64,000 nt of DNA from NCBI GenBank assembly GCA_051362555.1, contig CM120641.1:32494401-32558400 (forward strand). Direction: 5' to 3'. Both the position numbers and the translations under genes were made by a program. This document shows positions 8,442 to 9,399 of this stretch, piece after piece. The notes under the pieces were generated by a model. It was not told the DNA's origin. It saw only the letters and a list, made by a program, of their open reading frames with translations, and made no database searches. The stretch comes from Lingula anatina. Lineage: Eukaryota > Animalia > Brachiopoda. Position 1 is the stretch's first letter, and each line of letters begins with the position of its first letter.

Positions 8442-8519
8442 CTCGGATGTGGATGAGGATCCGTTAACTAAAGTGGAACGAGAGCGTGTGCGGAAACAAA
8501 CGAATAATGCGAGGGAAAG
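8442..8519 (+). CDS. TCF12: Alternative basic-region exon A: SDVDEDPLTKVERERVRKQTNNARER
   Basis: CTTTTTCAG acceptor, AG/GTGAGT donor; NNARER basic motif of E-proteins; phase 2-2. Confidence 0.92.
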
Positions 8520-8568
8520 GTGAGTTGCTGCGCTATTTAATATTAATTTTGGCATGTAATCTTTTTAG

Positions 8569-8631
8569 TCCTGCCGCTCCCACTGAAGAAGTGCAGACTG
8601 CGCGAAGGCAAGCCAACAATGTTCGAGAGAG
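8569..8631 (+). CDS. TCF12: Alternative basic-region exon B: PAAPTEEVQTARRQANNVRER
   Basis: CTTTTTAG acceptor, AG/GTGAGT donor; RRQANNVRER basic motif; phase 2-2; only 49 nt after exon A. Confidence 0.88.
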
Positions 8632-8887
8632 GTGAGTTACGGGGAGAAATTGGTGTGCCATGGTCACCTGTGTTTACCACCTGTATAGCATGTTTTTAGG
8701 AATTGTCTTTGTTGAACATAGTGTATTACAAGGAAAAAACGTGATCAGTTTGAAAATGTTACAGTTCACAGAATCAATGAAATGAAAGGAGGATATTTTC
8801 CTGCTTCTCATCTCACATTGTGTGTGTGTGTGTGTTTTAATTCAAATGATCCAAGACACCCCTGTGACTTTCCATTTTTCCACTTAG

Positions 8888-9033
8888 AATCCGTGTACGA
8901 GATATAAACGAAGCATTCAAGGAACTTGGTCATATGGTGACCATTCACGCAGGCAGCAGTCAGCCTCTTACAAAGCTGATGATTTTACAACAAGCAGTTA
9001 ATGTTATTACATCACTTGAACAGCAAGTCCGAG
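8888..9033 (+). CDS. TCF12: Alternative HLH exon [49 protein letters not shown]
   Basis: Pyrimidine tract-TAG acceptor, GTAACC donor; canonical E-protein HLH; 146 nt, phase 2-1. Confidence 0.95.
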
Positions 9034-9072
9034 GTAACCATTGAGACATCGCATGTCTCAGTCAAGTAAAAA

Positions 9073-9210
9073 CGACAAACGGCTGTCGAGGAAGTACATA
9101 CCTGATTGAAAATGATTTTATTTTTGTGATGGAATCACCTTGCAGAAGTGTCCTCAGAGGGTATGACTTAAGGTTTGAGATGTAGAACTTCCTTGACAGC
9201 TGATTTGTCG
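9073..9210 (+). other. Predicted intronic RNA stem between the two HLH exons
   Basis: 9073-9095 CGACAAACGGCTGTCGAGGAAGT pairs with 9187-9210 ACTTCCTTGACAGCTGATTTGTCG: 23 bp, one bulge, two G-U pairs. Confidence 0.75.
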
Positions 9211-9253
9211 GTTGTACATGGGCTGGAATTGATAAGCCTTCTCTTTGTCTTAG

Positions 9254-9399
9254 GATTCGGGTCCGTGATATCAATGAAGCTGTCAAAGAATTGGGCCACA
9301 TGTGCTCATTGCATTTACAAATGGACAAACCCCAGACTAAATTATCAATTTTGCAACAAGCTGTAACTTTGATAACTGCATTAGAGAAGCAAGTGCAAG
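9254..9399 (+). CDS. TCF12: Alternative HLH exon [49 protein letters not shown]
   Basis: CTTTGTCTTAG acceptor, GTAGGT donor; same length (146 nt) and phase as HLH exon A; DKPQTKL loop typical of E-proteins. Confidence 0.93.

Follow-up and report, generated by a model that had tools for sequence, protein, structure and literature searches.

E-proteins serve as the partner that tissue-specific bHLH factors have in common. The vertebrate E-protein gene TCF3 makes E12 and E47 by swapping a single bHLH exon, 18a or 18b, the two being mutually exclusive (PMC6317319, PMC6795145). A first-pass annotation of a 64,000-nucleotide stretch of the Lingula anatina genome (hereafter the window) had placed tandem copies of both a basic and an HLH exon in a gene of this family. 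This raised the question of whether the two halves of a bHLH domain can be chosen separately in one E-protein gene, and what such a choice would change in the protein. Our reading, to which we give a probability of roughly 0.82, is that one of two basic exons and one of two HLH exons are joined into four transcripts, and that the predicted bHLH domains likely share the E-box and differ in dimer choice or strength. The bHLH region comprises the following elements.

8442-8519, plus strand: basic exon A, 78 nt, phase 2-2, an acidic lead-in and the basic helix up to the equivalent of TCF4 R578
8520-8568, plus strand: intron of 49 nt separating the two basic exons, its candidate branch points lying at nucleotides 21 and 27
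8569-8631, plus strand: basic exon B, 63 nt, phase 2-2, a short lead-in without the acidic run and ERER turn, with Val at TCF4 position 575
8888-9033, plus strand: HLH exon A, 146 nt, phase 2-1, of the spiralian A-type with a neutral loop, QPLTKLM
9034-9253, plus strand: intron between the HLH exons, 220 nt, with a predicted long stem and a hairpin adjoining the exon A donor
9254-9399, plus strand: HLH exon B, 146 nt, phase 2-1, of the ancestral B-type with a charged loop, DKPQTKL, Cys at TCF4 position 595 and Val at 588

The four exons thus lie where the first-pass annotation had put them, with the expected phases, the equal length of the HLH pair and the NN(A/V)RER ends of the basic pair (NNARER in exon A, NNVRER in exon B). 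All four are flanked by AG/GT splice ends and carry junction reads (basic A, 44 in and 29 out; basic B, 63 in and 49 out; HLH A, 33 in and 60 out; HLH B, 45 in and 45 out). Any one basic exon together with any one HLH exon gives an open E-protein bHLH frame. If both HLH exons are included, or neither is, the frame is shifted and meets stops, which bears out the earlier claim that joint inclusion of HLH A and HLH B breaks it; with two basic exons, or none, the frame is kept. HLH A and HLH B are identical at 32 of 48 residues and 87 of 146 nucleotides (60%), and at this divergence they are neither a recent copy nor an assembly duplicate. As reads span every splice site of the four exons, the set is not a product of chance, and a pseudo-exon was likewise ruled out. 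Neighbouring homologous exons with matching phases and similar length, as found here, are characteristic of exclusive exon clusters formed by tandem duplication.

The rest of the gene extends to both sides of this region.

4108-4302, plus strand: exon with the E-protein motif LDDAIHVL, part of the same gene, linked at its 3' end by loose read ends to an exon at 6565
6997-7156, plus strand: upstream common exon ending in KRSR, seen in the reads
7659-7688, plus strand: 30-nt exon 5' of the basic pair, skipped only rarely (113 reads enter it and 4 bypass it)
10283-10404, plus strand: common exon downstream of the bHLH region (ERNLNPKAACLKRREEEK), which can use a donor at 10399 or at 10404
11677-12300, plus strand: last exon in the reads, where the stop ends at 11714 or 11703, set by the donor used

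Both hallmarks of class I E-proteins are present, namely the ERNLNPKAACLKRREEEK stretch after helix 2 (exon 10283-10399) and the upstream LDDAIHVL motif (4108-4302), which we take to be activation domain 2 of E-proteins. With HLH B, 8 of 8 solved-structure matches were E2-alpha or TCF4; the named matches of HLH A were TCF4/12, E2-alpha or unnamed bHLH proteins, its closest named relatives being nemertean and mollusc proteins (88-91%). On the strength of these sequence matches, we assign the gene to the E-proteins (TCF3/4/12, daughterless) of a lophotrochozoan.

Several further features were observed along the gene. The donors at 10399 and 10404, 5 nt apart, are both spliced to 11677, and the protein then ends in one of two short C-termini, backed by 30 and 12 reads. 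The last exon also holds another open frame, some 155 codons long, at about 11705-12175; fewer reads are listed leaving exon 10283-10404 than entering it, so an extra acceptor near 11711 may exist. At 3200-3283 on the plus strand, a candidate 84-nt cassette exon of phase 0-0 carries a second LDDAIHV motif as a partial duplicate of exon 4108-4302. Two tandem LDDAIHV motifs also occur in oyster and pearl-oyster models.

Use of the exons was followed in four of nine listed runs of bulk RNA (X1, X4, X5 and X7), covering about 6-25% of each run's reads. All four pairings of a basic with an HLH exon were found among 78 junction reads: A-A 11 (8, 1, 2 and 0 in X1, X4, X5 and X7, respectively), A-B 18 (2, 0, 14 and 2), B-A 22 (8, 5, 5 and 4) and B-B 27 (7, 7, 10 and 3). 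Counted as distinct read starts, these were 9, 16, 20 and 23 (68 in total). The earlier prediction of up to four bHLH domains from one gene is thereby borne out at the level of junctions, basic B and HLH B both being used and the transcripts not being confined to two coupled combinations. The two choices showed no tight coupling (Fisher p = 0.64; stratified odds ratio 0.90, 95% CI 0.32-2.5, p = 0.85), in agreement with the proposed independence of the modules; the counts are small, and the interval leaves room for moderate coupling.

If the choices were nevertheless coupled within each cell type, the gene would make two isoforms in the manner of E12/E47, and the four classes would arise from tissue mixing and splicing noise. 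The opposite leanings of X1 and X5 (odds ratios 3.5 and 0.29; heterogeneity p = 0.17), in runs that carry no tissue labels, would fit such a scheme. However, each class makes up 14-35% of the 78 junction reads, all four are listed within the single runs X1 and X5, and a fixed two-isoform scheme would put two classes near zero under any tissue mix. We therefore regard coupled pairs as highly improbable.

Usage of the exons differed between runs. The share of basic A was 0.52, 0.12, 0.46 and 0.25 in X1, X4, X5 and X7, and that of HLH A was 0.74, 0.43, 0.35 and 0.37 (p = 1e-4 by reads). The run-to-run differences had p under 0.001 by reads, and p = 0.08 (basic) and 0.11 (HLH) when distinct starts at single joints were counted. 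These differences, between runs without tissue labels, suggest that isoform choice is regulated. Among the read variants listed, all 5 of 5 in HLH A were synonymous, one in basic A altered a residue (L to S, run X7), and none were listed for basic B and HLH B.

Among the listed joints, all four exons were used and none of the pairs was doubled or doubly skipped. A basic A-to-B joint was found in 0 of 29 basic-A donor reads (95% upper bound 10%), an HLH A-to-B joint in 0 of 60 HLH-A donor reads (upper bound 5%) and a joint skipping both basic exons in 0 of 107 upstream reads (upper bound 3%). Joints were listed from at least 3 reads per run, and up to about 10% double inclusion of the basic exons is compatible with these counts.

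How might double inclusion be avoided? In work on tropomyosin, splicing reportedly required a minimum distance of roughly 40-50 nt between donor and branch point. In the basic intron, the branch-point candidates lie 21 and 27 nt from the donor, likely too near the exon A donor, and A-to-B splicing would then be sterically blocked; the other mapped introns of the gene are at least 220 nt long. For the HLH pair, a transcript joining A to B would run through the frameshift into early stops and would likely be removed by nonsense-mediated decay. The folded HLH intron may also prevent this joining. Its predicted fold (z -5.16, 0 of 200 shuffles as good; stem of about 9074-9096 with 9186-9210) is lower in energy than each of the 65 other intron windows taken from this gene. 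A second candidate element lies downstream.

9632-9651, plus strand: intron segment with complementarity to 9265-9284, in the 5' part of HLH exon B, z -4.0, chosen post hoc

This segment could mask HLH exon B by pairing. Neither element recurred in relatives: of the 19 introns between HLH exons in 10 related loci, 18 had z above -2, and 0 of 27 tests of exon pairing with downstream sequence in 9 related loci reached z -2 (locus L002, too short, was left out). Within the 64-kb window, a second copy of the folded HLH intron was absent. A conserved RNA-structure mechanism is thus unsupported.

What does the choice change in the protein? E12 carries an acidic inhibitory domain. Reportedly, going by the titles of Sun and Baltimore 1991 and of Shirakata and Paterson 1995, this domain blocks homodimer binding. 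The lead-in of basic A carries 6 acidic residues and that of basic B 2, and the basic choice adds or removes an acidic lead-in at the place where E12 carries its inhibitory domain. The residues of TCF4 that touch DNA are R569, R570, N573, N574, R576, E577, R578, R580 and K607 (PMC6895265), and these are identical across all four forms with the sole exception of R570K in basic A. As the DNA contacts are kept in all forms, the basic choice would alter the acidic lead-in and not the base-reading residues, and the description in the first-pass annotation of a DNA-contacting module being chosen was overstated. Choosing the other HLH exon replaces 16 of 48 residues; these lie in the loop, at the end of helix 1 and along helix 2, and include 588 (F/V) and 595 (V/C). 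The dimerization alanines 587 and 614 of TCF4 (PMC6895265) are common to all four forms. The F-to-V change at TCF4 position 588 was also observed outside HLH exon B, in an alternative HLH exon of clams and of two unnamed proteins (P0288, P0002 and P0246), on both A and B backgrounds.

With the contact residues conserved, all four forms are predicted to bind E-boxes as homodimers or as heterodimers with class II bHLH proteins. The basic exons could still be true specificity switches, with A and B picking different E-boxes or flanks and the gene addressing four target sets. Basic A and basic B do differ at TCF4 positions 570, 572 and 575, many species carry a changed residue 575 in their second basic exon, and R569 and R576, which lie beside the differing positions, read flanking modified bases in TCF4 (PMC6895265). 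Against this, N573, N574, R576, E577, R578 and R580 are identical in A and B, and 575 is not among the TCF4 contacts named in the available text of PMC6895265. We consider a specificity switch unlikely; the likeliest effect of isoform choice, judged from these residues, is on dimer choice and affinity rather than on the E-box that is read.

The age of the HLH pair was approached through its relatives. A-type HLH sequences with the neutral loop QPLTKLM occur in annelids, a nemertean, molluscs and flatworms, and the B-type (D/E-K/R-PQTKL) is common to cnidarians, rotifers, arthropods and vertebrates. A tree was built under LG+G4, with no mixture model, from 45 columns and 51 of the 64 rows; all 28 A-type rows fell on one branch with support of 100/96. 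The 13 rows left out were gene-model junk, a duplicate, one very divergent row, one gapped row and unnamed rows. Five lineage-specific HLH duplications were rejected (delta lnL 104, AU p = 2e-5); for a constraint grouping only HLH A of this gene with its HLH B, rejection failed (AU p = 0.065). Column 25 holds Q in 28 of 28 A-type rows and K/R in 7 of 7 spiralian B-type rows, and column 31 holds M in 28 of 28 and 0 of 7, respectively. Columns 25 and 31 helped to define the A-type, yet columns 17 and 24, which did not, also separate A from B. Since the A label was assigned by a motif within the aligned columns, exon order provides independent evidence: A precedes B in this gene, in models of Lamellibrachia, Taenia, Echinococcus, Macrostomum, Schistocephalus and Cichlidogyrus, and in the genomic loci L002, L008 and L010. 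B-type sampling is thin, because the HLH B search gave 21 proteins with few named spiralians. From tree and exon order we infer that the HLH A/B pair goes back to one duplication predating the split of annelids, flatworms and molluscs.

We also searched for the exons in 80 genomic loci from metagenome assemblies, a set with many near-copies and many short contigs. Of the 80 loci, 16 carry at least two HLH exons, and one, L010, carries two intact basic exons with 86 nt between them, along with three HLH exons. In L002, an A-type exon is followed by a B-type. The tandem HLH exons of L008 (80-2480) number at least five, four A-like and then a B-type, and the splice sites of each are intact. Another set of related loci (L012-L017, L023, L027, L030 and L033) carries as many as three HLH exons, of which the short L013 and L014 show two; the first is a strongly diverged A-type (I at 588, R at 607), followed by two B-types, in one of which D replaces the conserved G592. 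In molluscs, no B-type exon occurred in 173 models of 21 species (from clusters reached with an HLH A query, which may bias this count), and 7 species had two or three A-type variants. Its absence from these models suggests that B can be lost.

The second basic exon appears more labile than the HLH pair, as far as isoform states taken from mollusc and annelid gene models can tell. In 5 models of Owenia, two basic and two HLH forms occur and are joined in 3 of the 4 possible ways, and models of Biomphalaria and Physella use either of two basic exons. In models of 9 of the 21 mollusc species (a chiton, three scallops, three clams and two abalones), the second basic exon is added after the first, and in Ruditapes all four states occur among 13 models. 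Strict exclusivity, as originally proposed, fits the joints listed for the Lingula anatina gene, none of which is a double inclusion, but does not extend to the basic pair in the models of these molluscs. Swapped or tandem, the second basic exon provides the helix abutting the HLH. Position 575 is altered to V, D, N or Q in the second basic exon of many species; the orthology of these exons lies beyond the resolution of about 20 residues. In L076 (3093-3360), a second basic exon copy is interrupted by a stop, suggesting a recent duplication that is being lost.

This distribution also bears on whether the four transcripts, though real, are functionally equivalent, with exclusivity following from intron size and frame and the differences between the exons being immaterial. 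All forms share the DNA contacts and both TCF4 dimerization alanines (PMC6895265), models of Pomacea (11), Patella (7) and Mytilus (7) show one basic and one HLH form only, rotifer-like loci carry a single basic and a single HLH exon, and the B-type is missing from the 173 mollusc models, hence apparently losable. Yet A and B differ at columns fixed across phyla (17, 24, 25 and 31), the share of HLH A varies by run (by reads more clearly than by distinct starts at one joint), and HLH exons were repeatedly duplicated again in oysters, clams and locus L008. Equivalence thus seems distinctly unlikely, and we retain four forms that likely differ in dimer choice and binding strength as the preferred reading.

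Is this, then, the E12/E47 switch? Like TCF3, the gene alters the bHLH domain of an E-protein through tandem duplicated exclusive exons; in TCF3, elements in the intron help to prevent double inclusion (PMC6795145, PMC6317319). TCF3 swaps one exon and obtains two forms, whereas in Lingula anatina an intron parts the basic from the HLH half and each half is swapped, giving four; relatives of this gene, unlike TCF3, reach five HLH exons. The vertebrate-type loci L021, L038 and L039 have no intron between basic region and HLH, and in the tree the E12 and E47 rows group together with TCF4 (94/84), outside the A-type branch. With separate basic and HLH exons here that do not group with E12/E47, orthology with that switch was ruled out. 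Models of the crustaceans Homarus, Darwinula, Amphibalanus and Hyalella show a tandem HLH duplication behind a split basic exon with one basic region; in these gene models, the HLH copies also fall outside the A-type branch (the first Hyalella copy was left out), which points to a likely separate duplication. As both the E12/E47 and the crustacean copies lie outside the A branch, the 2 x 2 layout is likely a convergent and more modular variant of the vertebrate switch, as the first-pass annotation had suggested.

Other systems come close in part. Reportedly, a helix-2 exon is duplicated in COE/EBF genes, and its inclusion is said to be mandatory in vertebrates (PMC2394523); there, too, exon duplication remodels an HLH dimerization motif, but in a different family and without combinatorial choice. 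Butterfly daughterless, another invertebrate E-protein gene with regulated exclusive exons, has two mutually exclusive, season-specific exons (PMC9218548); this is one exon pair compared with two combinable pairs here, and the available text does not state which part of the protein they encode. We also noted P0344, P0355, P0357, P0358, P0326 and P0402 (crustacean two-HLH, beetle and tardigrade models), which may be further alternative-exon systems or model errors; the beetle model has two basic regions and identical HLH copies, the tardigrade model two whole bHLH domains. A survey of eight lophotrochozoan genomes lists one E12/E47 gene in six of them, and its main text contains neither 'splic' nor 'isoform' (PMC5381572). 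The available text of PMC6433000, PMC8431614 and PMC8657788 holds nothing about the 2 x 2 exon layout, and a literature search covering mainly the main texts of openly available papers found no prior description of it. Public gene models already include some of these isoforms without comment.

The feature is real, expressed and old, and it acts like the E12/E47 switch without being that switch. More tentatively, and with somewhat less than even confidence, we propose a spiralian exon toolkit in which an ancient, expandable HLH cassette (two to at least five exons) and a swappable basic lead-in provide cell-type-specific E-proteins with partners of their own (proneural, myogenic, Id), hidden from gene counts and with an origin separate from that of the vertebrate and crustacean systems. 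If one gene gives four to six or more bHLH domains, gene counts would understate the repertoire of annelids, molluscs and flatworms, including, if true, that of model planarians and tapeworms. Alternative bHLH exons would then have arisen at least two, and likely three, times in the E-protein family. As the basic lead-in is here split from the dimer surface in natural proteins, the roles of the two halves in partner choice and homodimer activity would be separable, unlike in E12/E47.
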